A stretch of 64,000 nt of DNA, taken from assembly GCA_947627325.1 (NCBI GenBank), contig CANQVO010000003.1, positions 43,263 to 107,262 of the forward strand. Reading direction: 5' to 3'. Under the pieces are notes generated by a model, which saw nothing but the letters and a program-made list of their open reading frames with translations, was not told the origin of the DNA and made no database searches. This document shows, piece after piece, positions 1 to 64,000 of this stretch (position 1 is its first letter; each line of letters starts with the position of its first letter). The position numbers were made by a program, and so were the translations under genes. Origin of the DNA: an uncultured Oscillospiraceae bacterium (GTDB lineage: Bacteria > Bacillota > Clostridia > Oscillospirales > Oscillospiraceae).

Positions 1-1023
1 CACGCCCTGGCCCTGGCCGCCGACGGCACCGTCTACGCCTGGGGCAACGGGACCCAGGGCCAGCTGGGCGTGGACCCCTCCACCCTGACCAACAGCACGG
101 AGCAGGGGGGCGACAACTTCCAGTACAGCGTCTCCCCGGTGGTGGCGCGGAACGACAAGGGCGAGCCCCTGCGGGGGATCGTCTCCATCGCCGCGGGCGG
201 CTCGGTCTCCGTGGCCCTGAGCTACGAGGGCAGTATCTACACCTGGGGCGACAACCGCCAGGGTCAGCTGGGCATCAACGCCGACCCCAACGCCGGCGGC
301 AGCGGCAACGAGAACTTCTACCGCGACAGCGCCCAGCAGGTGACCATGGGCCAGCCCTACGGCGGCGGCGCGCCCAACACCAACCAGAGCAACGGCTACC
401 TGGCCATCGCCGCCGGAGGCCAGAGCGCCACCACCCAGAAGAGCTACGGCCACGTCCTGGCCATCCGGGCGGTGCTTACCGACAAGGTGGACAGCACCCT
501 GGTCTACGGCTGGGGCGCCAACGGCTACGGTCAGGTGGGGGACAACTCCGCCGCCCCGGAGGCCAGCCAGGTGGAGCAGACCCACGTCCTCCTGCCCACC
601 GAGGTCCGCTACCGCACCTCCTACGCCGACGAGGACGGGCTCTACTACATCGGCAACCGCACCGTCAGCGTGGCCGCCGGTACGCTCCACTCCCTGGCCA
701 TCGTCCAGAACCGGCCGGAGGGCGTCACCAACGACAGCCAGGACGTGTACTACACCTACGGCTGGGGCTATGACGACCGCGGCCAGCTGGCCCAGGGGGA
801 TGCCTCCGGCAACGTGAACACCTCCGACGGCGGCGGGGACAGCCAGCGGCGCAGTCCCATCCAGCTGCTGGCCAAGGCCCCCGTGGAGGACGGCGCGGGC
901 AACCAGATCAACACCTACGTCACCGACTCCGCCGGGGTGGCCGCCGGCAACGCCTACTCCATCTACTGGGACATCAACGGCGAGGTCTTCGGCGCGGGCT
1001 ACAACTTCACCTATCAGCTGGGC
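1..1023 (+). repeat. RCC1-like beta-propeller P1 (partial, cut by the left window edge)
   Basis: Blade ends in frame +1: HALALAADGTVYAWGNGTQGQLG (1-69), IVSIAAGGSVSVALSYEGSIYTWGDNRQGQLG (178-273), WGANGYGQVG (511-540), WGYDDRGQLA (763-792), GAGYNFTYQLG (991-1023). A ~260 aa non-RCC1 beta-rich spacer follows (1024-1806). Confidence 0.85.
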
Positions 1024-4000
1024 GCCGCGCCCACCCTCACCAGCACGCCCGACGGAAAGGGCGGCTTCCTCAGCGACCACCAGGAGACGGTCAAGCTCCC
1101 TGTCCGGGTGGGCTACGGCGTGAGCCAGAACCTGATCTACGACAAGATCTGGGTCTTCACCACCATGACCGACGAGGACACCGACGAGACCTCCACCATG
1201 CTCACCGCCCGCTACGCCGTCCAGCCCGAGACGGTGCCCCAGGCCGGTGACCCGGGTGATCCCGCCAACGGCATCCCCGCCGACTGGGACATCGCCTCCA
1301 ACGTGGCGTCCATCCCCGTGTCCAAGCTGGTGCAGAGCGGCCCCACCGACAAGACCAAGGACGAAAACCTGCCCATTTGGGACACCGAGAGCGGCCAGCT
1401 CAGCGAGGACCAGTATGACGCGCTGTACGACGTGACCATGCAGTACAACCTGACCCTGACCGACCAGCAGTACGCCGTGGTGTTCAAGGACGGGGTCAAG
1501 CGGTACTACTCCGTGGGCTTCAACATCTCCGAGCGGGACCGGGCCGTGCCCAGCGCCGAGGACAGCTCCATGCTCTACGGCTACGTCCACGAGGACGAGG
1601 CGCCCAACGTGGACATCGTGGACACCAAGGACAAGCAGGAGCCCTATCCCACCCTGACCCGGAACAACGCCGTGCTTCTGCCCACCGAGCTGAAGGACGT
1701 CTATAAGGTCGTGGGCATCGTGGAGGACGCCATCGACTGGGAGGAGAACGGCATCTACGCCGGCAAGGTCAAGGTGACGGTGGAGGACGCCAACAACTTC
1801 GCCACCCCCATGGTCAGGGCGGGGGAGAACTTCACCGTGGCCCTGAAGTCGGACGGCACCGTTTGGGCCTGGGGCGACAACTCCTACGGCCAGCTGGGCG
1901 CCGGCTACACCTATGAAGAACTGCCCTACGCGCCCTACCCCATGCGGGTGGCCGGGGTCGGCCCCCGGGACGGCGCGCCCATCATGCAGCGCCTTACCTT
2001 AATTAAAGAGGTCGCCGCCGGGGACAACTTCGCCCTGGCCCGGACGGCGGACGGCTCGGTCTACGCCTGGGGCGACAACTCCAGGGGCCAGCTGGGCCAG
2101 AACGAGGACATCTACCTGCGCTACGACGCCTCCGGCGACGAGGTGGACGTGGAGATCGACCCCGACGCCCTGGCCGCCCTGCGGGGGAGCTGTTATCCCA
2201 TCCAGGTCACCGCCGGGACCAGCGCCGAGGACAGCGGCAGTGACTACCTCATGGGCGCCACCGCCATCGGCGCGGGCGGCAGTCACGCCCTGGCCGTGGT
2301 GGGGGATATGGGCTGGGTCTATGCCTGGGGCGACAACAGCCGCGCCCAGCTGGGCACCGGGTACACCCCCGCCGCCATCGGCGATCTGCGCACCTACCCC
2401 GACCACGTGATCCAAAACCGCAACGGCGAGAGCGCCGAGCAGAAATACCTCACCGACGCCATCAGCGTCACCGGCGGCACCTGGAGTTCCTACGCCATCG
2501 GCCCCTTCCCCTACGCCAGTTCCGGCAGCGGCGCCGCCCAGGGGGACAGCACCTATGTGGCCGTTTGGGGCGACAACCGCTGGGGCCAGCTGGGCGTGGG
2601 CCCCATTGAGAGCAGCCAGATCGACGACGAATACTACCAGACCACGGTGGCCTATATGCGCCGCAAGACCGGCGACGGCGGCGAAACCGACCTGGCCGAC
2701 GGCATCACCCAAGTTGCCGCCGGCGAGCGCCATGCCGTGGCCATGACCACCGGCGGCATGATCTACGCCATGGGCGATTACAGCTACGGCCAGCTGGGCA
2801 AGGTGGGCGCGCTGGACAGCACCAACGTGGGCTACATCGGCTACGCCAACACCCTCAGCGACGAGAAGGGCACCATCAGCGACGCCCTGGGCGTGGCCGC
2901 GGGGAAGTACCACACCGTGATCCTCCGGGGCAAACGGGCCGGCGACGAGAACGACCCCGGCCCCATCACCAGCAGTTACATCCAGGTGATGGGCACCAAC
3001 ACCAACGGCCAGTTGGGCCTGCCCGCCGTGGACGAGGACGGCTACTACCAGAGCCAGAAGCTGGGCGCCGTCAATTCCGGGGAGAGCTACCAGACCATCC
3101 GCACGCCGGACAGCGCGGAGGGCGTGGTCATCGCCCTGGCCGCCGGCGGGGCCCACACCATCGCCCTCACCGACCTGGGCGAGGTGCTGGCCTGGGGCAA
3201 GAACGAGTCGGGCCAGCTGGGGGAGATGTCCCTGGTGGACCGGGGCGGACCCGCCACCAGCCAGGAGACCGGCATGGCCAGCCAGGCCGGCTTTGACGAG
3301 GCGTACATCCCCACCGCCTCCGGCGTGGTGAACTACGGCGGTGCGCTGAAGTTCGGCGTGCGGATGGAGACCTGGCGCAACGGCGCGCGCTGGGACGACC
3401 TGGGCGACGGGGACTACAACCAGTGCGAATACACCCTCTGGCCCAACCTGCCCACCAACCTGGGCACGGACCCCAACGCCGCGGAGAGCGCCGGGAAGAC
3501 CCTGCCCTACCCCCTGAAGAAGACGGTGGAGGCGGGCAACGGCAACTACACCCACTACGACGGGACGGATATCCCCGGCGGCAGCTACAACATCTGGTCC
3601 AAAGCCGATGGCGAGGACTGGAAGGACACCGGCGCCGAGGTGAAGGTGACCAAGGGCGTGGACTTTGAGGCCCACCCGGCCATCATCAACTTCTTCAAAG
3701 TCGAATTCGACGTGGTGAACTCCAACACCACCAACACCGCCGCCCCCGCCATTGAGGCGGAGTACACCGTGGGCGGCATCACCAGCACCATCCACAACGG
3801 CGACAGCGTCTGGGGCGGCGGCACTCTGGTGCTGAAGGCCATGGGCGCCGGCGGCGAGGACCCCAATTACACCTACACCTGGACCACCGTCCCCACCCTG
3901 GCGGACGGGGAGTACGAGGTCGCCCTCCAGCCCAGAGAGGGACAGCAGGCGGTGTTGGACGGGATCTTCACCATCCCCACCCTGATGAGCCAGATCCAGA

Positions 4001-7000
4001 TCCACTGCTCCATCTACACCCCGCAACTCTTTGACGTCACCCTGAACATCCGCAAGGACAACGGCCCGTGGTCCAACAGCGGCAAGCTCCTCTTCCTCAA
4101 GAGCGACTACCGCACCGTCCAGCTGCAGCCGTCCGCCGACGGCAGTAGCGCCTACGTCCCCGTGGTGTGGAACGAGACGGACGAGATCTGGGAGAAGGTC
4201 CAGCTGCCCGAAGGGGAGTACACCATCTGGGAGTACAAGAGCGACTGCTACGATACGGACGGGAACCTCCAGCTGAACCTCTGCTACGAGAGCCCCCACG
4301 TCATCCAGGTGGAGGGGCAGGACGCCACCGATGACCTGGACTACTATACCTTAAATATCGCCACCAAGCCGGTGGGCGGCGTGTCCATGGCCTATGTGGT
4401 GGTCAACTACGCCTCGGTGACCGATGACGACGGGGAGGACAAATACGCCCCCCTGAACAACTGGCGTCTGCAGGACGTGGTGATGCGGGACGCGCCGCTG
4501 ATGGTCCAGGCCATCGGCACAGTGGCCTCCGGCTTCTTCACCGGCCGGGTGAACTCCACCTGGACCGTGGGCCCGCAGAACACCAACGCCCAGACCGGCT
4601 TTACCGAGATCCCCAACCGGGACGGCACCCTGCCCAACCGCCAGCAGCAGCTCCGGGGCACCACCGCCACCCAGATCTACAAGGCCAACGGCTACGGCGT
4701 GGATCTGCTGGTCACCATGGACGGCATGGTGGGCACCGACCCCACCTTTGTCAGCCCCATGGAGATCCAGGTCACCGTCAACGGCGAGCCGAACCCCGCC
4801 GCCATCAGCGGCTACCGCTTCTTCGCCGAGAGCCAGAACGGGCGGAGCGGCGTGTCCGGCCAGCGCACCTGGGCCAGCTATGAGTTGACCAACCAGGGCG
4901 ACGGGATCTTCTACGCCCCTGACGGACTGCCCCGGGATCGGTACATGATCTACGTCCAGTACCCCGCGGAGAAAGGCAAGAGCGTCAAGATCCCCGTGAA
5001 GATGAGCGACTTTACCCTGACCCAGACCGGCTACACCACTGCGGCCTACCCCAGCGGCCTGGATCCCGAGGTCGCCCCCCTGGAGATCCCCCTGCGCCAG
5101 GTCAAGTATCAGATCCAGGCGCAGAACAACGCGGCCTCCGGCGCCTCGGGCACCGAGGGCTACGTGCAGGTCATCAGCGGCATCTCCTCTGACGCGGCCT
5201 GGGCGTGGGACTATCAGTTGCAGCCGGGCGAGGCGGATAACCATTCCGGCACCGTCCACGGCGAGCTCCACAATGGCCACACCCACCTGGGCACCATCAT
5301 CGCCGACCCGGACAACCCCGACCCCGAAAAGCAGACGGTGGTGGTGAAGAGCATCAAGGTCACCGGCGGCCAGACCGCCGATGGCAGTTTCATCGTGCCC
5401 ACGAACAACCTGATCTCGGTGCAGGCCATGGGCGACCACGCGGACACCTTTATCATCAGCGCCGAGTGGGTGACCGACAGCGCCGATAAGTACCACAACA
5501 CCAGCGACCTGCCCGCCGGCACCCCGGTCACCGTCAGCACCGACCCCAGCTACCACGTGAACCTCCCGGCCACCAGCGGGACCTACGACCCCACCTACGA
5601 TGTGGCCTGGGACTATGACAACAACACCTTTACCGGCACCTTCAGGCCCAAGGGCATTTCGGGCAACCTGGAGACGGAGGCTCTGCCCCTGGAGACCCTG
5701 AATCAGCTGACCATCGGCTTTGTGGGCTACGGCAACACACAGAGCGGCAGTTACGGCCAGGTCCAGCTCACCTCCCTGGAGATGCTGCCCCAGGAGGAGG
5801 ACGGGGACTTCTACGCCTCTATCCTGGCCAAGGGCGGCGGCTACCTGCTGACATTGGCGGCGGACACGCCCGCCCCCATGGGCGGCGCCATCCAGAGCCA
5901 GGTCATCGTCCCCGGCCGGGAGCTGGCCAACTGGGAGGCCGGCGCGCCCAAGCTGGACGCGCTCTCCCTGGGCAGCAGTATCGAGCTGATCACCGGCGAC
6001 ACGGTGGACATCGTGGGCAGTATCGAGACGTACATCCCCGACTACCGCCTGGCCTACTACTCCGCCCACCCCGACTATTACCGCAACACCACCCTGGGCG
6101 GGGACGCCATGGAACAGCCCTACATCCAGACGCCGCCGGAGAAAGTGGACGGCGCCGAAGTGGACGAGATGGGAACGCCCATCCAAGTGGTCAACCCCGA
6201 CCGCTATGTGCAGACCGGGGTGGGTGAGGACGGCGCTCCCATCTACCGGGACTTCTGGCAGGACGCGGAATTGACGCTGACCACCTCCAACCCCGACGTG
6301 GTCAGTGTGAAGGACTATACCTTGACAGCTATGGGCCAGAGCGGCTGGGCCACCGTGCGGATCTACAACACCGTCACCGGCCGGTCGGCCATGCTCCGGG
6401 TCCACGTGCTCAACGTGGAGGACGCCACCGGCGACGGCCACGAGAGCGAGTGGGCCTATAAGTCCACCCCCATGGTGGCCTATGGCGACAACTTCTCCGT
6501 GGCATTGAAGGCGGACGGCACCGTGTGGGCCTGGGGCGACAACGCCCAGGGCCAGCTGGGCGTGGGCTACGCCCCCGAGGTGCTGGCCTATTCCGAGGCG
6601 CCCATGGTGGTGCGCTGTTACGACGCCGCCAACGACGCCACCCCCACCCTGCGGAACGTGGTGGCCATCGCCGCCGGGGCGGATCACGCCGTGGCCCTCA
6701 CCCGGGACGGGCAGATCTACGCCTGGGGCGACGACAGCTTTGGCGAGCTGGGCGTGGCCCGGGAGGACTTCCCCTACACCGAGACCACCGTGGTGGACGG
6801 CGTCAACACCGAAGTCGTAGTGGGCTACGGCAGTTACTTCGCCACCCCCGCCCAGGCGGACAACATCTCCGGCCAGGTGGTGGAGATCGCCGCCGGGGAC
6901 GGCTTTACCGTGGCCCGCACGGAGCGGGGCACCGTTTGGGCCTGGGGCCGGAACGACAAGGGCCAGCTGGGTGTGGGCTACCGGGGCGACGTGCTGGGCG

Positions 7001-58000: not shown

Positions 58001-61000
58001 CCGCCCACGGCCAGTTCGGCACCCCCAACTACTCCCTGCAAGGGCCCAACTACGCCGAGATCGGCTCCTTCGTCCGCATGGCCGCCGACGGCGTCAGCGT
58101 GGAGGAGGCCCTGCCCACGGACTACGCGGGCCATCCCATCCGCTCCGCCAGCCGCTTCATCGCCATCGGCGCCGGGGCCGGGTCCGTGGCCGCCATCGAC
58201 GTGGACGGCGCGGTGGCCGTTTGGGGCTCCAACGCCAAGGGCCAGCTGAGCGCCTTTGAGACCAAGCAGATCTACACCCCCGCCACCTACGACCTGGTCT
58301 CCGCCGGGACGGACAGCGAGGGCAACGAGCTCCAGGCCAAGGTCCTGAAGGATCCGGGCTACTTCACGGTGACCGGGGACAGCCAGCCCGCCAATGTCCT
58401 GTACGCCAGCTATCAGAACACCTACAACACCACCTACACCGACGTTTACACCGTGGGCGGTGATACCCAGCTCATCGGCACCTACCGCTCCGTGGCCCTC
58501 CAGACCGCCATGGGCCAGACCGGCTATGTGCTCTACACCAAGCTGGGCGACGCCACCCTGGACGCGGACGGGACGGCAGACCGTTCCGCCCTGATCCCCT
58601 ACACCCTCCTGGCCTCCGGCTCCAACGCCTATGGCCAGCTGGGCATCGGCCGCGGCGGCGTGAGCGTTGCCATGTCCGCCCGGGCGGTCATGGCCGGGGA
58701 GGCCAACCCCGTGAACGCCCAGGAGCGGGTGGATAACCTGATGTTCATCGCCACCGCGCCCTACGGCGGCACCACCCTGGCCTACGACAACAACTACGGC
58801 TCGGTGTACGCCTGGGGCAACAACACCAGCGGCCAGGTGGGCGACGGCACCTACGGCAACCAGACCACCCCCGTGATGGTGCTCAAGGACGGCGGCGGGT
58901 CCTATCTGGACATCACCCACGTGCTGGTCAACGACGATCCCACCCTGCCCGACTACACCGCCACCATCCTCTTCAACGTGGCGGAGGCGGACGCCGCCGC
59001 CTCCACCGCCCAGCTGGCGGTGGCGGGCCAGGTGTTCACCGACTTCACCGGCGCCACCTCCACCGTGAAGGCCCCCGCCGGCACCGCCATCGACGCGCAG
59101 ATCGTCATGGCCCCCGAGTACACCATCGGCGCCGCGGCCATGATTACCGCCAGCGGGGTGGTGGTCCCCCTGGGCTTCACCAAGGGCGACGGCTCCGGCA
59201 CCCTGGCCGCCGGGGACAGCATCGACCGCTTCACCATGCCCGCCGAGGACGTGACCATCATGGTCACCGTGGTGGACGTGGCCTTCGGCAGCGGCGGCGT
59301 GGAGTACACCGTGCGCCTGGGCGACCAGCTGCTGGCCGCGGCCCCGTACAGCTACCTGGGCCTGAGCACGGCCCCCGCCACCAGCGCCAAGGCCATGGTG
59401 GGCGACGAGGTGCCCTTCGCCATCCAGATCCCGGACGGCCAGACTCTGACCCGCCTGCACTACTACCAGACGGACAATGAAGACGAGATCGTGGGCCTGG
59501 AGTTCACGGTGGACACCTCCACCGCGCCCAACGTGGCCTACGGCCAGTTCGTCATGGGCTCCACCGACGACAACCAGAATATCCAGTACGTCATCGAAGC
59601 GGAGTTCGGCCCCGCCGGGAGCAACCCGGCCTACGGCTTGGAGCTGGACGTGGTGGACAACTACAACCCGGTGCCCGGCACCTCCACCACCGCCAGCAAC
59701 TCCGTGTCCATCACCTCCACCAGCGGCGGCCTGGGCCTGAGCGGGATCACCGCCGACAACGACATCCTCAACGGCCAGACCGCCATCCGGGCCGGTGACC
59801 TGGTCACCGTGACCGCCAACCTGGGCAGCCCCGCCTACTACATCCAGGTGACCGCCGCCACCAAGAACTTCGGCACGTACACCGTGCCCGTCTACGTCCA
59901 AGACGGCTCCACCGCCACCTTCGTCATGCCCTCGGACGACGTGGAGCTCACCGTCAAGTTCCTCTACGGCGCTATCACCACCGTCCAGTACGACACCCTC
60001 ATCTCCGCCAAGGGGGAGATCACCACCGCCATCAACTACGGCGACGCGGTGCGGATCGCGGTGAAGGACATCGTGGCCAACCTGGGCTTCAACGCCTACG
60101 GCCCCTTCCGCTACACCCCCAAGCCGGAGAACCTGACCTTTATCTCCACCAACGAGCGGGTGGCCACCGTGGACAACAACTGCTTCCTGGTGGACGGCTA
60201 CGGGAACTACGTGGACCAGGCCGGGAACGTGGTGAACGAGGCTGACCGGGTCTATAACCCCGACTTCGGCCTGGTGAAGGCGGGCTCTGAGACCGCCGGA
60301 TACACCTACATCATCGTCAGCGACGACCGGGGCAACGTGGGCTACTTCAAGCTGGGCGTGGTGCCCGGGCCGCAGATGGTGGACGGCGTGGCCCTGAAGA
60401 AGGACGTGGCCTTCCCCATGATCGAAGTGGGCGCCCAGCACACCATCGCTTTGAAGTCGGACGGCTCGGTCTGGGCCTGGGGCCGCAACAACCTGGGCCA
60501 GCTGGGCCTCCAGCGGGGCACCACCCAGTCCACCACGCCCACGGAGGTCCTGGCCGTGGTGGATAACCGGGGCAACACCGCCCCCTTGACCGGCGTGGTG
60601 AAGATCGCCGCGGGCGGCAACCACAACCTGGCGCTGAAGTCGGACGGCTCGGTCTGGGCCTGGGGCGACAACGCCTTGGGCGCCCTGGGCATCGGCAACC
60701 AGGGCGGCGTGCAGTACGCCGCCGTCCAGGTCCACGGCATCAACCCCATGGACAACGGGATGCTGGGCAGCGACCTCTACTCCTCCGCCATCGTGGACAT
60801 CGTGGCCGCCGGGGCGGTGGACCAGAGCGGCGCCACCACCCGCCAGTACTCCATGGCGCTGGATAAGAGCGGCCGGGTCTTCGCCTGGGGCAGCAACTAC
60901 CACGGCGTGGTCAACCCCGCCGACAACACCGGCGACCGGGCCGGGGTCATCACCGTGCCCATCAACATCAGCCAGAACTTCACCACCCTCAACGATCCTC

Positions 61001-63999
61001 TGACCCTGTCGGCGGATAAGATCGCCGCCAACGCCCGGGTCCTGAAGCGGGACGGCCAGGTCATCACCTGGGGCGTCAACGACGAGACGCACCGCGCCTA
61101 CGGCGGCTACGGCACCACCGAGAGCCCCGAGCGGGCGGTGCTGGGCGGCCGCGCCCTGGAGGTCAGCGGCGGCGTGTACAACGCCGTGGCCGTCACCACC
61201 GGCGGCCAGGTGAAGACCTGGGGCGGCGACAACTCCATCGGCGGGTACGACACCCGCTACGCCAACGGCAAGCACGACGTGGAGATCCTGCCCGGGGAGC
61301 AGATGATCGACCGGGACGGCAAGCCGCAGACCGAGAGCCAGCGGCTGCCCTACGTGGACAACTACGGCAATCCCATCTACGTCCGCTATGACGACGAGAC
61401 CGGCGCCATCCTCTCCCAGGCGTACATGAACATGGGCACGGGCCGGTACTACAACGCCACCTCCGACCAGGGCGAGGACCTGGGCACCGCCGAACAGCTG
61501 GCGGAGAAGGGCTACCAGGTCTGGTACAGCGACCAGGAGACCATCGTGCCGGTCACCAACACCACCGGCGAGGCCGTGGTGGTGGAAGACGTGCTGGAGA
61601 ACTACGTCCTGCCCTCCACCTTCACCGCCCTGAGCAAGGGCTATGAGTATGGCCGGGAGGTCATCGGCTTCATCTACTCCGGCGCCACCCAGGCCGCCGA
61701 CAGCGTCACCCAGGCCGCGCCGCTGCCCGAGGCGGGCTATCCCGGCACGGTGACCATCGAGGCCGTGGAGGCCGGCTCCGCCACCGGCGGGGACGACGCC
61801 CTCTACCATAAGTCTGCCCTGCTCTACGGCTATGTGGAGATGTACAGCAAGGACCGCCAGCTCATCGGCTACGCCCCCGCGTCTTACTTCAAGCAGGACG
61901 GCGACAGCCTGGTGGTGGGCGAGGACTCCAACGGCGTGCCCTACACCACCGAGGACCTGGCCGAGGTCCTGCTGTCCCTGAACGATCTGATCGCCGGGTA
62001 TGAGACCCCCGCGGGCTACACCAAGCTCACCCGGCCCATCTATCTTGGAATGCCCGTCACCGCCGACATCTCCACCTACCTCCAGGTGGCCTACAACGAC
62101 GGCAAGCTGTGGAGCGTCGGGCCCTTCCAGTACATGAGAAAGACCACCTCCGCCGACGGCGCCAAGGACCTCTACGGTCCCGCCCTGGGCCAGGGCGGCA
62201 ACCTGGACGAAAACGGCGAGAGCTACGTCTACGCCTACCGCCAGACCGGCGATGGCGGAGAGTACCTGGTGGACGCCGACGGCCAGTATGTCCCCCAGCG
62301 GGACGAGAACGGCTATCCCATCGAGGACAAGACCCTTTGGGGCGTGCCCGGCTGGGTCTCCGCCGGTTCCGCCGGCGTGGCGGGCGCGGCCATCAACGGC
62401 ATCGTGGAGGTGAAGAACTCCGTCTCCGTCACCGACCAGCACTCCATCGTCATGAAGGCCAACGGCTCCCTGTGGGCCTACGGCAAGAACGACAACGGCC
62501 GCATTGGCGACGGCACCTCCACCTCCACCTCCATCCCCGTCCGGGTGGGCGCCAGCTACTTCATCCTGGAGGATTACCTGGTCTCCATCCGGGAGGGCGA
62601 GACCTTCCAGTTCAACGTGGATCCCAAGATCTCCGCCTTCAACGTCCTCAACAGCCTGGAGGAGGACGCCTCCAACCAGGATCTGGCCTGGTTCGTTTGG
62701 GACGCGGAGGAGGACTCCGACTGGAGCCAGCAGGGTCCCGACGAGCTCTACAAGACCTCCTGGAACGACGTGGTCAAGGTGGAGTACGAGACGCTTACCC
62801 CCAGCGAGAGCGCCGCCAAGGGCCTGAAGTACACCCAGAGCGACAAGCGGGCCACCATCACCGGCCTGAAGGCCGGGGTCACCTATGTCCTGATCTCCGT
62901 GGCCAACGACCCGCTGATCGTGGGCGCCTTCCGGGTGGAGGTCCGGCCCGGGGACGAGGTCAGCAGCGTGGCCGCCGACGGCACGCGGAAGGTCATCCAG
63001 GTGGGCGTCAGCGAGACGGCCACGATGGAGGACCGGGTGAGCGTCATGGGCGCGGACAACGCCAAGAGCGAACAGCTCCTGGCCCTGAACCGCCAGCTGG
63101 CGGAGGCCGGGACCTATGTGCCGGTGGAGCGTCAGGGCGACGTCTACGTGCCCGGCGCGGCCCGGGACAGCGAGAGCGCCGATCCGGTGCCCGCCTATCC
63201 CAGCGGCGGGCTCTACCAGGGGATGTACGACGCCTATGACGAGGCCATCCTGACCGCCCAGCACAACACCACCAAGCTGAACGCCGTCTACGGCGACAGC
63301 GTGGCCTATCCCATGGTGAGCAGCGGCACCAACTTCACCGTGGCCCTGGCCGCCGACGGCACCGTGTGGACCTGGGGCGCCAACGACTACGGCCAACTGG
63401 GCCAGGGCGACCTCTTCGGCACCACCGCCGCCCCGCGGCAGGTCATCGCCCAGGTCCGGGCCGACCAGTACGACGGCTTCCCGGCGGGCACTGTCATCCG
63501 CTACGAATACCTCAACAACGTCCGCAAGGTGGTGGCCGCGGGCAACTTCGCCTACGCCTTGAAGAACGACGGCACCGTGTGGGCCTGGGGCCGCAACAGC
63601 TCCGGCCAGCTGGGCCTGGGCGGCGGCTACCAGGAGTACCTGCGCGTGCCCTACGCCACACAGATGCTGGCCGGCGGCCAGGCCGCCGCCACCTACTCCA
63701 GCGTCTACCTCCAGGAGATCGTGGATATCGCCGCCGGCGGCGTTGACGACGCCCACGGCTTCGGCTACTTCATCCAGTCGGTCTACCGCCGGGGCCAGGT
63801 GGAGGACGCGGAGTCCACCACCGGGCTGACCACCAAGTTCTACAACCTCACCGACAACGTCTTCGGCGTGGGCGACAACGCCAGCAACCAGCTGAGCCTG
63901 CTCAGCACCACCAGGACCTTTACCACCCCCGTGTCCATCCGGGTCTCCAGCGGCATCGCCGCCCAGGTGTCCATCGGCACCGCCGCCACCGGCTCCATC
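1..63999 (+). CDS. Internal fragment of one giant multi-domain protein (at least 21,333 codons visible; 5' and 3' ends both outside the window): tandem RCC1-like beta-propellers separated by Ig-like (Big_2-like) and other beta-sandwich domains
   Basis: Frame +1 gives the RCC1 blade signature (hydrophobic-AAG-x2-H-x-[VL]AL-x2-DG-x-[VLI]-[YW]-x-WG-x-N-x2-GQLG) from codon 1 to the last codons. One example is VAIAAGADHAVALTRDGQIYAWGDDSFGELG at 6661-6753. Third codon positions are almost always G/C in this frame. The ORF track reports only ORFs that end in a stop, and it lists no frame-1 + ORF at all, so frame +1 has no stop in 64 kb. Hand translation of segments from every module met no stop and no frame change. 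All four giant minus ORFs are in the same codon register (start coordinate mod 3 = 1), as expected for antisense shadows of a frame +1 gene. Confidence 0.93.
1807..3222 (+). repeat. RCC1-like beta-propeller P2 (seven blades counted)
   Basis: Entry [33 protein letters not shown] (1801-1899). Later blades end YAWGDNSRGQLG (to 2097), YAWGDNSRAQLG, VWGDNRWGQLG, YAMGDYSYGQLG, VMGTNTNGQLG and LAWGKNESGQLG (to 3222). Confidence 0.85.
3223..6468 (+). other. ~1,080 aa non-RCC1 beta-rich array between P2 and P3 (several InlB-B-repeat-like / Ig-like units, ending in a Big_2-like domain)
   Basis: There are no GQLG/WG blade motifs here. Units repeatedly end in an F-x-[IV]-P-...-alternating hydrophobic strand, e.g. 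GIFTIPTLMSQIQIHCSIY (~3960-4020) and GSFIVPTNNLISVQAMGDHADTFIISAEW (~5385-5470). The terminal Big_2-like stretch is LTLTTSNPDVVSVKDYTLTAMGQSGWATVRIYNTVTGRSAMLRVHVLN (6271-6414). Confidence 0.5.
6469..8685 (+). repeat. RCC1-like beta-propeller P3 (seven blades counted, split by a helical insertion)
   Basis: Entry [32 protein letters not shown] (6466-6561). The last blade, [31 protein letters not shown], ends at 8685. The downstream spacer 8686-9279 contains the Ig-like VKVGVTDDSYFEVTDLGGSQYEIRPTQRSDGQKLGLTSVYIDYEF (9007-9141). Confidence 0.85.
7021..7731 (+). other. ~237 aa probably alpha-helical insertion between blades 3 and 4 of P3
   Basis: NLLRVTEPSLFTDLFQTIYQLDPVSDAAELAALSARYQRP...METYILALELYDEMQKYLQETHNTW...WSYEDYQRAKAEYDQRQLDGTW. 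The segment has helix-favouring composition, heptad-like hydrophobic spacing and no blade motifs. The propeller resumes at [32 protein letters not shown] (~7735-7830). Confidence 0.5.
9280..10776 (+). repeat. RCC1-like beta-propeller P4 (seven blades counted)
   Basis: Entry APMVAAGAKHAVALDSLGRVWVWGDNSRGQLG (9277-9372). The last blade, GETFIVFARETGTVFASGDNTAAQLG, ends at 10776. A Big_2-like domain follows: LEFTSLDESIVRLESATDTRVTFATASPIKYGNTYIQVYDRATGRTLLLRVSVVP (11026-11190). Confidence 0.85.
11491..12702 (+). other. ~400 aa mixed alpha/beta insertion inside P5 that carries a Cys4 motif
   Basis: It starts after blade 2 (…REVYVVGG) with LSSITTNLIHTPSEEELTQIHRANFAKVMKLFGNAEQNVLAFYQDESGAW… and ends before ILDVAAGADHLLALTAGGEIYAAGANGHGELG. 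It has no blade motifs and is rich in Y/W/F. Confidence 0.55.
12382..12459 (+). other. Cys4 motif C-x4-C-x14-C-x4-C (possible zinc-ribbon-like knuckle pair)
   Basis: Codon-by-codon read: LLL-C-DYPN-C-GLQYDPSDTITPVI-C-NEPG-C-DKV. The Cys codons are at 12382, 12397, 12442 and 12457. A further WRCQNDH lies at ~12592-12612. Cys is otherwise very rare in this protein. Confidence 0.4.
14113..15975 (+). repeat. RCC1-like beta-propeller P6 (seven blades counted, long loops)
   Basis: Entry [25 protein letters not shown] (14107-14181). Internal blades include [32 protein letters not shown] (~14827-14922) and [32 protein letters not shown] (~15058-15153). One blade loop carries an E/P-rich PAPAPEEEGEPSADT (15301-15345). 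The propeller ends at FSGRNKERQG (15975). A Big_2-like domain follows: VITYTSSDETIAQFEYDAQKGMYCLRPTKEAYGRLIITVNNVHDNYRGDYEVIVLP (16291-16458). Confidence 0.8.
16495..18012 (+). repeat. RCC1-like beta-propeller P7 (seven blades counted)
   Basis: Entry VTVKAAENATIALQANGTVWMWG (16495-16563). Later blades include GFALAASNSGKVYAWGRNDRGQIG, VVAGKDHALALRSDSLVYAWGDNTQGELG, DAGDNYSMVMTRDGRVFTFGDNTYGRLG and NAGPNHAMALSVDAKNELYAWGKNTFGQLG. A Big_2-like domain follows: LWVDSSDPSVAVAEIVPGVEGGIRVTTTGVGTANIYLYNT...YTTIFRVRS (18403-18600). Confidence 0.8.
18682..20133 (+). repeat. RCC1-like beta-propeller P8
   Basis: Entry AVPMVASGLNFTVALKANGTVWFWG (18679-18750). Later blades include LAAGKYHALALTSELLW...[13 protein letters not shown] (~19530-19665) and the last blade, FGENTTVGVQAEGSVWAWGSDTNGALG, which ends at 20133. 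A ~300 aa spacer follows (20134-21030), ending in the Ig-like strands VNIGAGGQVTVVFQDLEHKAQALVMLRVIP (~20806-20895). Confidence 0.8.
21031..22494 (+). repeat. Degenerate RCC1-like propeller P9 (most blades have lost the WG-x-N-x2-GQLG motif)
   Basis: Entry LPKVAAGGDHFLALSSDGAVYSWGGNFRGQLG (~21028-21123), exit LTEAGEIFTSGSNTLGQLG (to 22494). Blades in between keep only the strand cores: VIDLAAGDEASIAVNAKGVAYQWGWSFTMMQ, VAVYYGLSADGHLYQKYEYG and VLVALAADGSVYYQDIAYNG. A Big_2-like domain follows: FVYEVSDERLFTVEPTLDGDLLIKANTNGYYGQGILTVYDTVTRAQGSLSITVRQV (22957-23124). Confidence 0.65.
23173..24375 (+). repeat. RCC1-like beta-propeller P10
   Basis: Entry APKIAAAANYSAALTADGSIWVWG (23170-23241). Blades include [58 protein letters not shown] and [27 protein letters not shown]. 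The last blade, LGDRHGLALRDDGTVYAWGANDHQQLG, ends at 24375. A Big_2-like domain follows: FYTVASSNENVAVAKLTPDGTTVTITPTPGGYGTAVILLKW... (24901-25104). Confidence 0.8.
25168..26499 (+). repeat. RCC1-like beta-propeller P11
   Basis: Entry [32 protein letters not shown] (25165-25260). Blades include VGDTFALALDKNGQVWAWGQNGSGQLG and AAGGAFAGAVDRNGYVYTWGVNTKGQLG. The propeller ends at TDGTVWAVGRGTSGQLG (26499). A Big_2-like domain follows: VVRYTLSDYTIATFIEGTVGSDNQATGGVVKLASTEKKLGSTDLIIAVY... (26794-27000). Confidence 0.8.
27022..28683 (+). repeat. RCC1-like beta-propeller P12 (contains a ~165 aa beta-rich loop insertion at ~27560-28050)
   Basis: Entry TAVAAGVDHSVALAEDGTLWVWGSNRQGQLG (~27022-27114). 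Blades include [81 protein letters not shown] and LGESHGLAVMENKGEVYAWGLNAQGQTG. The propeller ends at AAGSNEGYKLG (28683). A Big_2-like domain follows: VEWVSGDTSVATVDVVNSDTAHKAVMRPVTGHYGLSVIRVTNTVSGHTGSLRLTVTQ (29044-29214). Confidence 0.8.
29242..30732 (+). repeat. RCC1-like beta-propeller P13
   Basis: Entry [32 protein letters not shown] (29239-29334). Blades include [56 protein letters not shown] and AAGTYQSYAVSETGDLYAWGNNDHGELG. The propeller ends at [24 protein letters not shown] (30732). The spacer 30733-31428 contains the Ig-like LRVSLTDPRLGRVEKVANVTDGVDGIVFTPSTDTMGSTMMEISYTAADGATYTMLIHLVVS (31186-31368). Confidence 0.8.
31429..33129 (+). repeat. RCC1-like beta-propeller P14 (zinc-knuckle insertion after blade 1)
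   Basis: Entry [31 protein letters not shown] (31429-31521). Blades include [79 protein letters not shown] and GGKSHAVALTRDGAVYTWGQ. The propeller ends at YAAGTNSEGQTG (33129). A Big_2-like domain follows: FTFFSSDESIVQINYVTDSEGRNVGAKIIPTGQIEGEYYDRFGTATVVVVDRVNKNWGSFKVTV (33565-33762). Confidence 0.8.
31591..31659 (+). other. CxxC-x16-CxH zinc-ribbon-like knuckle inserted in the loop after blade 1 of P14
   Basis: Codon read: EEYFY-C-PV-C-DKPIPASAFDANGHYT-C-A-H-LDG. Cys codons are at 31591, 31600 and 31651, and His is at 31657 (another His at 31642). Confidence 0.45.
34003..34914 (+). other. ~300 aa Ala/Leu/Asp/Thr-rich, probably alpha-helical (possibly coiled-coil-like) segment inside the P15 insertion
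   Basis: Verified codon by codon: DWDTAYEAAETALATWTATESARLSAYNTAKSDLDAMGWAAQRDDLIARIDALANETTAAITQIDQSVTTLNTY...MAEHMAALKTALTTRLAGYQNMRQALANLGDD...YDAVTRIDKLLQGAEID...AADLFNAYKAMNANEYFQKRTTVDDKWTEWMDAKKEADPYRNTMAFYQAMMDLDRV. Long stretches have no Gly or Pro, and there are no blade motifs. Confidence 0.55.
34915..35409 (+). other. Possible BspA-type leucine-rich-repeat (LRR_5-like) patch, followed by an acidic EPEEAEEEPDRES linker (35410-35448)
   Basis: YPGVVAITGLSDEGKAARELVLPTRLTESDYTTVFQ...VVLVDFDENNTGHQFSDGAFTSLTLSGSYQVVRVGAFQNTRMNTLVFQAEIPTSGAILASSFTS...YLTQVEVDNVQLAGGQMKPDALAATGIFSGVHIVAV. The repeated x-AF-x4-L-x2-L/V-x-F/V pattern resembles BspA-like LRRs. This is pattern recognition only. 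Confidence 0.3.
37774..39261 (+). repeat. RCC1-like beta-propeller P16 (carries an ~90 aa loop insertion with an H/C motif)
   Basis: Entry [32 protein letters not shown] (37771-37866). Blades include [105 protein letters not shown] and NHIYVWGNNDHGQLG. The propeller ends at YSFGEGELGELG (39261). A Big_2-like domain follows: LHVKIVDESLLTYAYDRSRTRLTFSAVHPDKFGETMVVLTYDYTDPATGETFHYVYQFPVFVKD (39559-39750). Confidence 0.8.
39778..41571 (+). repeat. RCC1-like beta-propeller P17 (zinc-ribbon insertion after blade 1)
   Basis: Entry [33 protein letters not shown] (39778-39876). Blades include [95 protein letters not shown]...NVYAMGTNLYGEMG and SYAFGINDRGQLG. The propeller ends at GYVWGWGNNATTATGTTILGQLS (41571). 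The spacer 41572-42381 contains a weak Ig-like signature, WAAVMSNPDIARVDVTNNASDNVLIFSEG... (42001-42170). Confidence 0.8.
39952..40026 (+). other. Classical CxxC-x17-CxxC zinc-ribbon motif inserted in the loop after blade 1 of P17
   Basis: Codon read: AAWA-C-PQ-C-GRVYDEAHSFATDDAIP-C-AT-C-GATVTK. Cys codons are at 39952, 39961, 40015 and 40024. It sits between PVQV (blade 1 exit) and [14 protein letters not shown] (blade 2). Confidence 0.6.
42382..43954 (+). repeat. RCC1-like beta-propeller P18
   Basis: Entry TVAGMNFSAMNTTDGNVWVWGDNVYGVLG (42382-42468). Blades include [94 protein letters not shown]...KVYGWGGNNRKQL and AELYTWGDGDLGQLG. The propeller ends at GYIWGWGNNRYLQLG (43954). A Big_2-like domain follows: ITVEVTDPTIAVANNVGGQWVIRSAGRNEYGQTSVVFKAYE...FQVVATSVLQLEIYP (44317-44565). 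Confidence 0.8.
44584..46512 (+). repeat. RCC1-like beta-propeller P19 (long aromatic/His/Cys-containing loops)
   Basis: Entry [32 protein letters not shown] (44581-44676). Blades include [100 protein letters not shown] and GGDSSAAIDAQGHLYVWGDNAYGQLG (to 46218). A degenerate last blade runs to ~46512. The spacer 46513-47313 ends in the Big_2-like FTVISSDESILAVHVKPGTDGYFELRAMPNAFGTVTVMIRENTTQVTRMFSVSVRP (47101-47268). Confidence 0.75.
47314..48711 (+). repeat. RCC1-like beta-propeller P20
   Basis: Entry [32 protein letters not shown] (47311-47406). Blades include [75 protein letters not shown] and TLYGIGSNSQNQLG. The propeller ends at [24 protein letters not shown] (48711). A Big_2-like domain follows: LVFKSLNTRLITFSDSATGLALIHWENVETGMYTYVTVTDINTGYTAQIRVAFVDD (49018-49185). 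Confidence 0.8.
49267..50733 (+). repeat. RCC1-like beta-propeller P21
   Basis: Entry [26 protein letters not shown] (49264-49341). Blades include [83 protein letters not shown] and AGDLFSLALDDSGHVWYWG. The propeller ends at SHMVLMTENGALYAYGSDAYAALG (50733). A Big_2-like domain follows: YQVEILGGENIVSYDPTTGTLTASATATGVVQVVVRDVEHMDANGQYLELGVITLVVN (51031-51204). Confidence 0.8.
51244..52836 (+). repeat. RCC1-like beta-propeller P22 (a ~125 aa insertion precedes the last blade)
   Basis: Entry APMVAAGDDFTMALTADGRIYTWGTTDNGVLG (51241-51336). Blades include [97 protein letters not shown]...NVYAFGYNYLGSLG and [28 protein letters not shown]. The last blade, VSDEHMVMIRDDGFVLTSGRNDHGQIG, ends at 52836. 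A Big_2-like domain follows: FKVSASNPIVDVIQRQDSAGGSLFYIRP...GSTVITITETVTGLSVQFTLNILK (53119-53325). Confidence 0.8.
53371..54504 (+). repeat. RCC1-like beta-propeller P23 (several degenerate blades)
   Basis: Entry [32 protein letters not shown] (53368-53463). Blades include AAGGQHAVAIDKDGKVYTWGRNAY, AAGSAHTLFLTSAGTVYAYGSNSRGQLG and AAGGNVSMAVTQSGLLYLWGQGDVGQQG. The propeller ends at FAMDAKGAIYGWGSNARGALG (54504). Confidence 0.75.
54697..54786 (+). other. Acidic E/P/A-rich low-complexity linker (probably disordered)
   Basis: Codon read: EDLQAPAEEPVEEPAQASEEEMAEEPAAAA. It lies in the P23-P24 spacer (54505-55353). That spacer is the only propeller junction without a recognisable Big_2-like signature. 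Confidence 0.6.
55354..56790 (+). repeat. RCC1-like beta-propeller P24
   Basis: Entry [32 protein letters not shown] (55351-55446). Blades include AAGNNHILALDRGGSVYAWGYNDQSQLG, AAGNRFSVAVDADGFVYTWGANNSGVLG, AAGDRHILALDQYGNVYAWGDNAYGQLG, GFNTSAVIRQDGTVWLFGDQSYG and GYRHMMALGRDGAVYSWGSDNFGQLG. The propeller ends at SAGMYHSVVLMEDGTVYAMGYNNTMQLG (56790). A Big_2-like domain follows: VTLRSLNEEVAVIRTETTADGRNVAVVDVVGFGVGYIVAEYVDPDTGLHYSNAFRVYG (57127-57300). Confidence 0.8.
57355..58842 (+). repeat. RCC1-like beta-propeller P25
   Basis: Entry YPQVGVGENFSVVLRDNGTVWTFGSNYDTATGVG (57352-57453). Blades include [108 protein letters not shown] and LLASGSNAYGQLG. The propeller ends at NYGSVYAWGNNTSGQVG (58842). 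Confidence 0.8.
58843..60414 (+). other. ~520 aa non-RCC1 beta-sandwich array: three ~100 aa InlB-B-repeat-like units plus a terminal Big_2-like domain
   Basis: Verified codon by codon. Unit ends are DRFTMPAEDVTIMVTVVDVAF (~59224-59286), GQFVMGSTDDNQNIQYVIEAEF (~59542-59607) and ATFVMPSDDVELTVKF (~59911-59958), each preceded by an a-x-aGd-x-V-x-V/I-type strand (e.g. IRAGDLVTVTANLGSPAYYIQVTAA). The Big_2-like stretch is LTFISTNERVATVDNNCFLVDG...GLVKAGSETAGYTYIIVSDDRGNVGYFKLGVVP (60133-60366). Confidence 0.45.
60415..62508 (+). repeat. RCC1-like beta-propeller P26, interrupted by a ~385 aa insertion before the last blade
   Basis: Entry [32 protein letters not shown] (60412-60507). Blades include [68 protein letters not shown] and YNAVAVTTGGQVKTWGGDNSIGG (to ~61245). 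The last blade, VTDQHSIVMKANGSLWAYGKNDNGRIG, ends at 62508. A Big_2-like domain follows: VVKVEYETLTPSESAAKGLKYTQSDKRATITGLKAGVTYVLISVANDPLIVGAFRVEVRP (62770-62949). Confidence 0.75.
61246..62400 (+). other. ~385 aa non-RCC1 insertion of unknown fold inside P26
   Basis: YDTRYANGKHDVEILPGEQMIDRDGKPQTESQRLPYVDNYGNPIYVRYDDETGAILSQAYMNMGTGRYYNATSDQGEDLGTAEQLAEKGYQVWYSDQETIVPV...YLGMPVTADISTYLQVAYNDGKLWSVGPFQYMRKTTSADGAKDLYG...YVYAYRQTGDGGEYLVDADGQYVPQRDENGYPIEDKTLWGVPGW. It is Tyr/Gly/Asp-rich, with no blade motif and no family signature that I recognise. Confidence 0.45.
63310..63999 (+). repeat. RCC1-like beta-propeller P27 (partial, cut by the right window edge)
   Basis: Entry [32 protein letters not shown] (63307-63402). 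It continues with [29 protein letters not shown] (~63529-63615), IVDIAAGGVDDAHGFGYFIQSVY... and NVFGVGDNASNQLS. The frame is still open at 63999. Confidence 0.8.
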
Positions 64000-64000
64000 C

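Follow-up and report, generated by a model that had tools for sequence, protein, structure and literature searches.

The 64,000-nucleotide (nt) stretch of DNA considered here (positions 43,263 to 107,262 of contig CANQVO010000003.1; hereafter "the window") is crossed from end to end by one open reading frame (ORF) encoding RCC1-type β-propellers. This raises the question of whether such a frame is the inside of one gene and, if so, what kind of protein the gene specifies. An earlier reading of the letters alone (the sequence-only reading) had described a giant gene with both ends outside the window and had suggested a surface fiber or adhesin as its product. The answer reached here is that the window is the inside of a single real gene, of a high-GC member of the Clostridia related to gut Oscillospiraceae, whose product exceeds 21,000 amino acids (aa). 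We also hold, with good confidence, that this product is a Sec-exported, acidic, and multivalent extracellular fiber, adhesin, or tether and not an enzyme.

Reading frame, selection, and assembly

Frame +1 (nt 1–63999, forward strand) is the internal part of a giant ORF; it contains no stop in 21,333 codons, as the sequence-only reading had claimed, and its product has a mass of 2.27 MDa. Base composition alone predicts ~430 stops over this length, and the probability of finding none is approximately e^-430. The remaining frames contain 205, 505, 734, and 975 stops, together with frame −2, which contains only 4. The G + C (GC) contents at codon positions 1, 2, and 3 of frame +1 are 0.63, 0.47, and 0.95, respectively, and the product has a normal amino-acid composition that is rich in Gly, Ala, Thr, Val, and Asp. 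No start, no stop, no tRNA (tRNA scan), and no Rfam family (Rfam scan) was found in the window.

Relatives of the gene were retrieved from independent assemblies. A scan of GTDB genomes, using as the query a chimera of two unique linkers from the window, identified a 384-kb contig (L001) and a 199-kb contig (L002), both from metagenome-assembled genomes (MAGs) of uncultured Oscillospiraceae in a mouse gut catalogue, and a metagenome scan identified a contig of the same species as L001 (L003). In L001 and L002, one frame is open over all of the 20.7 kb fetched from each, and the other forward frames contain 131–221 stops. L001 corresponds to positions 103,470–124,171 of contig CAJTUE010000001.1, and L002 belongs to contig CAJUAS010000001.1. 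Translated, they match aa ~17,590–21,333 of the window protein in collinear order with ~57% identity, each alignment consisting of one or two high-scoring segment pairs. At both ends of the window, the module order is collinear in independent assemblies of other species over 3.5–3.8 thousand aa, and the collinear orthologues and homologues align to the window over 3,786 aa (57% identity), 1,312 aa (56%), and 3,486 aa (44%). L001 and L002 are 88.8% identical at the amino-acid level, with a ratio of nonsynonymous to synonymous substitution rates (dN/dS) of 0.118 across 6,858 codons and of 0.08–0.17 in every 1,000-codon bin, and all of their indel runs (23/23) are in frame. The low dN/dS all along the alignment and the in-frame indels therefore indicate that the protein is under purifying selection over its whole length.

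Two explanations that would deny the existence of a functional giant gene on this strand are effectively excluded by these and the following data. One of them, which we regard as very improbable, is that the apparent 64-kb ORF arose by mis-assembly at repeats, either from several shorter RCC1-repeat genes that were joined or from a shorter array that was expanded. Such an artifact would be in keeping with the repetition at the motif level (stretches encoding WGxNxxGQLG recur 60–90 times in the window), with a source that is probably a metagenome assembly, and with the fragmentation of related genes into many short contigs elsewhere. However, the longest exact repeat in the window is 41 nt, only 48 distinct 31-mers are repeated, and the DNA repeats are at most 143 nt long and 60–80% identical. 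At the protein level, the best matches between modules are 23–37% identical, and the median identity between propellers is 30%; judged by this divergence, the internal repeats and paralogous modules are old. Mis-assembly from ordinary reads is not expected because the internal repeats are short and divergent, and a collapse of repeats was rejected on the same grounds. In addition, joined genes would bring stops, intergenic DNA, and starts, none of which is present in the 64 kb, and an artifact is difficult to reconcile with the collinear module order described above. Thus, the worry about mis-assembly that accompanied the sequence-only reading is largely removed by the short repeats and the collinear orthologues.

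The other explanation, to which we give hardly any credence, is that frame +1 is a decaying or non-expressed relic or that the real gene lies on the minus strand in frame −2. The latter frame has only 4 stops and is open for 14,489 codons (nt 20533–63999, reverse strand), and among the relatives an in-frame TAG occurs in L003 and a frame switch in a further relative (L004). By contrast, a relic would not be expected to show a dN/dS of 0.12 along the whole orthologue pair with indels only in frame, and the defects in the relatives sit in contigs with coverages of 1.9x and 6x. The frame −2 "protein" has an abnormal composition (22% Gly, 17.5% Val, and a single Trp) and no Pfam match over 10,000 aa. 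Its openness follows arithmetically from the sense frame: the first base of a frame −2 codon pairs with the third base of a frame +1 codon. Only 0.9% of these third bases are A, and stops, which begin with T, are thereby nearly excluded. An antisense gene in frame −2 was therefore rejected in favor of a composition shadow of a sense frame that is GC-rich at its third codon position. The shadow ORF is a trap for ORF finders and gene callers.

Several irregularities were observed in the relatives. L003, which has a coverage of 6x, differs from L001 at 4 positions in 11,968 nt, and at L003:10446 (= L001:19136) GAG is changed to TAG inside the giant ORF. This change is either a nonsense mutation at the level of the strain or an error in sequencing. 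In L004 (1.85x coverage), the frame switches from +2 to +3 at 2190–2540, within a Pro/Glu/Thr-rich low-complexity stretch; the switch splits the ORF into two called genes and is probably an assembly error. In L005, the contig of the homologue P0025 described below, the ORF stops at a TAG (7090–7123) where the GC content of the MEGAHIT contig falls from ~60% to ~25% in the last 33 nt. Other orthologues read through the corresponding position, and the stop likely reflects junk at the contig end or else the boundary of an insertion. At ~8690–8750, L001 contains an insert of PTEPTEPTEP-type low-complexity sequence (~60 aa) that the window lacks (aa ~20465), and it is at this repeat that the L003 contig breaks.

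Modular architecture of the visible protein

RCC1-type families were the only ones found by Pfam (PF25390, PF13540, PF00415, and PF25384), with E-values from 1e-64 down to 0 in every segment scanned. Per 5,000 aa, PF25390 reaches 957–1,298 bits against a cut-off of 150 and PF13540 reaches 621–898 bits against one of 22, and the repeat signature of the RCC1 families, among them those that the sequence-only reading had named (PF00415/PF13540), is above the curated thresholds. When a hidden Markov model (HMM) of the blade was built from the window itself and iterated, with blades counted at i-E ≤ 0.1, 170 RCC1 blades were found from aa 8 to aa 21,320, in agreement with the earlier statement that recognizable domains occur throughout. 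Blade groups cover ~58% of the residues, and ~40% of the visible protein is without a recognizable family. A second iterated HMM, seeded from a linker, uncovered a domain of ~100–130 aa (domain X), which is present in 24 strong copies, each directly N-terminal to a propeller. Measured from one X domain to the following one, a segment typically spans 630–800 aa with seven blades, and in two cases it holds a pair of propellers. Altogether ~27 propellers can be counted, with those at either end truncated by the window. The repeating unit is a divergent Big_2-like immunoglobulin (Ig) domain followed by a seven-bladed RCC1 propeller, and ~25 such modules are arranged in tandem.

The assignment of a seven-bladed propeller fold is supported by two observations: seven WG.N..GQLG motifs are found in the consensus of 14 modules, and an AlphaFold (AF2) model of one module (nt 28981–31113, forward strand) resembles UVR8. 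The model, which was calculated from an alignment of 14 paralogous modules, shows an all-β domain X followed by a complete seven-bladed RCC1-like propeller (predicted local distance difference test (pLDDT) 61; predicted template modeling score 0.64; pLDDT of the propeller core 70–95). In a Foldseek comparison, UVR8 was its best match (E 2e-29; template modeling (TM) score 0.83 normalized to the target), followed by RCC1 (TM score 0.64–0.69, also normalized to the target), HERC2, and RPGR.

Domain X is considered a divergent Big_2-like Ig domain because its profile matches structures of the Big_2 type as well as a Big_2 domain in an orthologue. Against PDB sequences, the profile of 22 copies of X matched the surface protein 7z47 at 7.8e-5, and then Nup210, Sap, LigA, and LigB, and it also matched an entry described as "Bacterial Ig-like domain, group 2." L001 holds one Pfam-positive Big_2 domain (37.8 bits, 1.8e-9), with which the X profile aligns at a probability of 90% and an E-value of 1.6e-6 (hhalign). 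Within the window, the gathering threshold of Big_2 (PF02368, 22.8 bits) is not reached: a match was obtained in only one of 22 X domains (12.8 bits, E 0.12), and scans of the linkers gave no Big_2 match at E ≤ 1. The Ig-like spacers proposed by the sequence-only reading are thus recovered at the level of profiles but stay below the Pfam threshold in the window.

All modules lie on the forward strand. The window opens within a module (nt 1–1512) of which five blades (aa 8–374) and a linker are visible, and which aligns to P0025 from its residue 965 onward. The next module (nt 1513–6237) comprises X (aa 505–617), a seven-blade propeller (aa 618–1088), and an orphan blade-free region (aa 1089–2079), and is followed by two modules composed of X and eight blades (nt 6238–8946 and 8947–10971). 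Between nt 10972 and 13827, an orphan region (aa 3809–4215) is preceded by X and one blade and followed by six blades. X is accompanied by seven blades in the modules at nt 13828–16236, 26740–28980, 31114–33504, 37528–39483, 44254–47064, 50971–53070, and 55102–57072, by six detected blades at nt 16237–18357, 24859–26739, and 47065–48945, and by five detected blades at nt 22909–24858. Five or more blades follow X at nt 48946–50970 and 53071–55101, and the collinearity with L001 and L002 begins just upstream of the latter module (aa ~17,590; nt ~52,770). The two double modules contain two propellers each and a weak second X; that at nt 18358–22908 comprises X and 11 detected blades (second X at aa 6815–6914), and that at nt 39484–44253 comprises X and 14 blades (second X at aa 13944–14074). 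At nt 33505–37527, X and one blade are followed by an orphan region (aa 11308–11869) and then by blades (aa 11870–12450). Toward the end of the window, X and seven blades are joined to an all-β orphan region (aa 19642–20027) at nt 57073–60081. The module at nt 60082–63081 is atypical and consists of X, three blades, an orphan region (aa 20344–20820), an isolated blade (aa 20821–20871), and a further orphan stretch (aa 20872–21027). The last segment, which is cut by the window end (nt 63082–63999), contains an X-like segment and three blades. The isolated blade between the two orphan regions (nt 62461–62613) is 92% identical to the MAG orthologues, compared with an average of ~57%, and is the most conserved element seen.

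In addition to propellers and Ig-like domains, both of which the sequence-only reading had proposed and both of which are present, the protein contains conserved orphan regions of 390–990 aa that this description had left out. Five of the blade-free regions are large (aa 1089–2079, 3809–4215, 11308–11869, 19642–20027, and 20344–20820), and none of them matched a Pfam, NCBIfam, or PDB sequence. Searches of linkers and blade-free segments likewise returned nothing credible in Pfam at E ≤ 1 (20 segments), in NCBIfam (10 segments), or with phmmer against PDB (two segments). Where orthologues allow a comparison, the orphan regions are 55–62% identical and the propellers 56–72% identical; by this measure of sequence identity, the orphan regions are as conserved as the propellers. 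The largest of them (nt 3265–6237, forward strand; 991 aa) is β-rich. When this region was used in an exhaustive HMMER search of 1.84 billion representative proteins, only 11 relatives were retrieved; all are fragments that align in collinear order with the first ~3,500 aa of the window protein (28–56% identity). A tblastn search of plasmids and phages with the 991-aa region and a word-indexed protein search with a 1,051-aa blade-free stretch (aa 1121–2171) gave no match. By the word-indexed search, the 3′ linker retrieved one 180-aa fragment, and aa 19,650–20,820 retrieved two family fragments together with generic RCC1 proteins. The motifs LPEGEYTIWEY and RDRYMIYVQYP in aa 1089–2079 are ones that we take to resemble Cna-B/prealbumin-like adhesin domains, a likeness that no profile match supports. 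The region at aa 3809–4215 is of the α+β type, is rich in aromatic residues, and contains a Cys4 cluster. That at aa 19642–20027 is 57% identical to its orthologue, and an AlphaFold model based on a three-sequence alignment is all-β and too uncertain to classify (pLDDT 43).

The visible protein contains only 32 Cys residues (0.15%), 11 of which are concentrated in three zinc-ribbon-like clusters on the forward strand. The cluster at nt 12382–12459 (aa 4128–4153) has the form CX4C-X14-CX4C (CDYPNC-X14-CNEPGC). A CX2C-X16-C cluster (CPVC-X16-C) at nt 31591–31653 belongs to the module at nt 31114–33504. The third, a knuckle pair of the rubredoxin type (CPQCG-X17-CATCG; nt 39952–40026, aa 13318–13342), is inserted in a propeller segment. 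Clusters with zinc-ribbon spacing are unexpected in a presumed extracellular and otherwise Cys-free protein, and the three sites lie outside the region covered by L001 and L002.

Ends of the gene, export, and proposed function

Both ends of the gene were claimed to lie beyond the window, and homologues bear this out. An exhaustive search identified P0025 (2,258 aa), residues 965–2254 of which align with aa 1–1312 of the window protein at 56% identity; this homologue thus starts ~964 aa earlier. P0025 begins M..KRLGMRFVCGVLTASMLLSTAATGFAAGVGA, and its N-terminus (MTVVDANIGELKRLGMRFVCGVLTASMLLSTAATGFAAGVGA) comprises a basic n-region, a hydrophobic core of ~19 residues (Kyte-Doolittle 15-residue mean 1.81), and small residues at the likely cleavage site. 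Judged by eye and hydropathy, it would be a cleaved signal peptide or a signal anchor. It is followed by an acidic low-complexity stretch of ~500–800 aa that is rich in Thr, Glu, and Asp; the first propeller begins at approximately residue 826, and no Pfam domain was found ahead of it. On the contig of P0025, an AT-rich intergenic region and a Shine-Dalgarno-like AAAGGGG motif lie ahead of the start, and GTG codons occur at nt 316 and 325. Upstream on the opposite strand, a fragment of a gene for a PolA-type 5′-3′ exonuclease indicates a chromosomal setting. A eukaryotic or viral origin was rejected in view of the bacterial MAG orthologues and of this exonuclease gene beside the start of the homologue, and an exact 40-mer from the window had no match among viral contigs. 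By collinearity with P0025, the gene of the window should start ~2.9 kb upstream of the window and should encode a Sec-type export signal.

At the other end, at least 3,114 aa follow in L001 and L002 after the position of the last codon of the window. This extension contains 22–23 additional blades, equivalent to at least three propellers, as well as a single canonical Big_2 domain, and it breaks off in the middle of a propeller. Because 964, 21,333, and 3,114 aa can be summed over collinear homologues, the full protein probably comprises at least ~25,400 aa (~2.7 MDa or more).

The visible product has an isoelectric point of 4.49 and a net charge of about −1,196 that is evenly spread along the chain. 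As the sequence-only reading had noted, the window shows no enzymatic domain, transmembrane run, or signal peptide: no convincing transmembrane segment was found in the 21,333 aa (the maximum Kyte-Doolittle 19-residue mean is 1.77, in β-strand-like segments), and the 21,333 + 3,114 + 965 aa of the window and its homologues yielded no match to a toxin, Rhs, peptidase, or any other enzymatic family. An extracellular location has been independently predicted for the Oscillospiraceae RCC1-type giants (West-Roberts et al., 2023, bioRxiv 10.1101/2023.11.21.568195).

A feasible model is as follows. The chain would be exported through Sec, and its N-terminal low-complexity stretch, lying close to the cell wall or passing through it, would form a flexible stalk. 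Rigid beads of Ig domain and propeller (~30) would make up an acidic extracellular fiber hundreds of nanometers long. Through its many different propeller faces, this fiber may bind multivalently to mucus or glycans of the host, to food particles, or to other cells. A propeller spans ~4–5 nm and an Ig domain ~4 nm; with these general per-domain sizes, the extended span of the visible part is recalculated at ~200–250 nm, close to the ~200 nm estimated by the sequence-only reading. A fiber or adhesin is favored because of the Sec-type signal, the acidic low-complexity stalk, the ~30 beads, the acidity, the scarcity of Cys, and the lack of an enzymatic family in the regions searched, and the surface role suggested earlier thus appears probable. 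The propellers have long diverged, yet each is conserved between species, which suggests individually specialized binding faces and not a uniform building block.

Some points weigh against this interpretation. The signal peptide and the total length are carried over from homologues at 56–57% identity, the window itself containing neither terminus, and the putative signal peptide of P0025 was judged by eye and hydropathy. No LPXTG motif was found in the 21,333 visible aa, and no SLH or CWB anchor was seen, with the C-terminus lying beyond the sequence covered. Zinc knuckles of the CPxCG type are more typical of intracellular proteins. The nonsense codon, the frame switch, and the terminal stop in three low-coverage relatives, which are probably errors, could mean that the gene is broken in some strains. 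RCC1 propellers have no single conserved function, and the binding role is deduced from domain types and physico-chemistry only; the adhesin role is a prediction from sequence.

When the rival explanations are ranked by confidence, a scaffold of the matrix or envelope comes before toxin delivery, and these two are followed by the assembly artifact and by the relic or antisense gene. It is unlikely, in our estimation, that the protein is a scaffold without specific ligands, such as an S-layer-like coat, a sheath, or an intercellular tether of chains or aggregates. The secretion features would fit a scaffold equally well, the X profile also matches the S-layer protein Sap, and conservation extends from the order of the modules to the orphan regions, which would be expected of a structural assembly. 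On the other hand, propellers that are ~30% identical and are each under purifying selection point to individually specialized surfaces, and neither an SLH domain nor any other wall-binding domain was detected in the parts covered. Less likely still is a polymorphic-toxin style of organization, in which the array would reach or penetrate a target cell and deliver a C-terminal toxin or enzymatic effector, or would itself be the effector. The C-terminus lies beyond the covered sequence, which leaves room for a terminal toxin or enzyme domain, and the large share of the visible protein without a recognizable family is compatible with this possibility; moreover, West-Roberts et al. mention bacterial RCC1 proteins in pathogenicity and an RCC1-like propeller in a Yersinia toxin complex. 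However, the search for toxin, Rhs, peptidase, and enzymatic families was negative over the whole length given above, and a bead-like array of Ig domains and propellers that is acidic and poor in Cys is what is typically found in structural surface proteins. Thus, the extracellular fiber or adhesin is preferred to both.

It is also tempting to speculate about a more elaborate form of the adhesin, which we consider doubtful: an N-terminally tethered "receptor array" of more than 30,000 aa, in which each of 30 or more anciently diverged and individually conserved propellers, together with the orphan and zinc-ribbon-bearing inserts, recognizes a different ligand. If this were true, the protein would be among the largest of the mammalian gut microbiome and would represent a multi-specific capture or recognition device without a characterized counterpart.

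Comparison with known systems

To date, full-text literature searches have found only one paper on the "Oscillospiraceae RCC1-type giant genes," which are described in one paragraph (section 12) of a preprint (West-Roberts et al., 2023, bioRxiv 10.1101/2023.11.21.568195). These RCC1-repeat giants were recovered from gut metagenomes of humans, mice, and rabbits as well as from a single Pseudoflavonifractor genome, and are described as consisting entirely of one repeating domain, without transmembrane anchors, and as predicted to be extracellular (West-Roberts et al., 2023). The window gene shares with them RCC1 repeats over the full visible length, the lack of a transmembrane anchor in that part, and the predicted location; its orthologues lie in Oscillospiraceae MAGs of the mouse gut and would place it in the same lineage. 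It differs in that ~40% of its visible protein is not RCC1 but consists of Big_2-like Ig domains, orphan regions, and Cys clusters. In addition, members of the class comprise at least 30,000 aa by definition ("giant" denotes ≥30,000 aa and "large" ≥10,000 aa in West-Roberts et al., 2023), whereas 21,333 aa are visible here and at least ~25,400 aa are indicated by collinearity. The gene of the window is a further member of this known, experimentally uncharacterized class, which it fits in composition, predicted location, and lineage of its orthologues. The sequence-only reading had stated that no giant protein built mainly from RCC1 propellers had been characterized; this holds with respect to experiments, but the implied novelty is outdated by the 2023 report.

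The longest relative returned by the protein databases searched has 3,822 aa, and the contig index holds only products of 30–5,000 aa. Because no longer products are returned or indexed, giant genes are effectively invisible in these catalogues except as fragments on short contigs. Several fragments of the family have been deposited as "hypothetical protein, partial" (P0021, P0022, and P0024 from bin NC311; P0002 and P0023 from bin NC131; and L006). L006 is an NCBI MAG contig of bin NC311 that is open throughout the 11.5 kb fetched. The bins of these fragments are labeled Muribaculaceae and Roseburia, yet L006 has a GC content of 65% and looks mis-binned. The three NC311 fragments cover the same region with mutual identities of 35–39%, which reflects either mixed species in the bin or paralogous giants in one genome; in view of these three divergent copies in one MAG bin, some genomes may contain several paralogous giants.

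What is new here is the module grammar (a Big_2-like Ig domain ahead of each propeller), the conserved orphan domains, owing to which the protein cannot be called "entirely" one repeat, the zinc-ribbon-like inserts, and the N-terminus of a homologue with its putative signal peptide, together with quantified purifying selection and cross-species collinearity for an RCC1-type giant. A protein of more than 25,000 aa (~2.7 MDa or more) of mammalian-gut Clostridia would be among the largest bacterial proteins known. Its size is striking, but the class has already been reported and the likeliest role, that of a giant adhesin, is conventional. The module map and the probable export signal can guide the selection of antigens, of peptides to be targeted by proteomics, and of constructs to be screened for binding, and the pay-off would be to learn by what means the abundant Oscillospiraceae of the gut adhere to mucus, to particles, or to partner cells.

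With other giant prokaryotic proteins the window protein has its order of size and a proposed role in contacting other cells in common. The 36,805-aa protein of Chlorobium chlorochromatii is one such case. The giant proteins of Omnitrophota, of up to 85,804 aa, are another (West-Roberts et al., 2023, bioRxiv 10.1101/2023.11.21.568195). The Omnitrophota giants contain many transmembrane regions, SecA-like DEAD helicase domains, and a mixed enzymatic and dockerin content, in contrast to the window protein, which shows no transmembrane segment and no enzymatic domain in its 21,333 visible aa. The giant proteins of a 2026 preprint on the "Hodor" megaplasmid, with S-layer and MBG domains, were considered and rejected as a different family.

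The propellers of RCC1, UVR8, the RCC1-like domains (RLDs) of HERC2, and RPGR have seven blades and the WG.N..GQLG signature, as does the window protein. These proteins contain one to three propellers and are mostly intracellular eukaryotic regulators, whereas the window protein is a predicted secreted bacterial protein with about 27 tandem propellers and many long insertions between blades. Giant surface adhesins composed of Ig-like or other repeats include Ebh of Staphylococcus aureus (~1.1 MDa) and the Big_2-rich Lig proteins of Leptospira. An export signal, arrays of β-rich repeats, an acidic and Cys-poor composition, and a presumed projecting rod or fiber would be common to these adhesins and to the window protein, which is at least twice as large as Ebh. 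By contrast, its main bead is a propeller and not an Ig-like or helical repeat, and its repeats are anciently diverged rather than near-identical.

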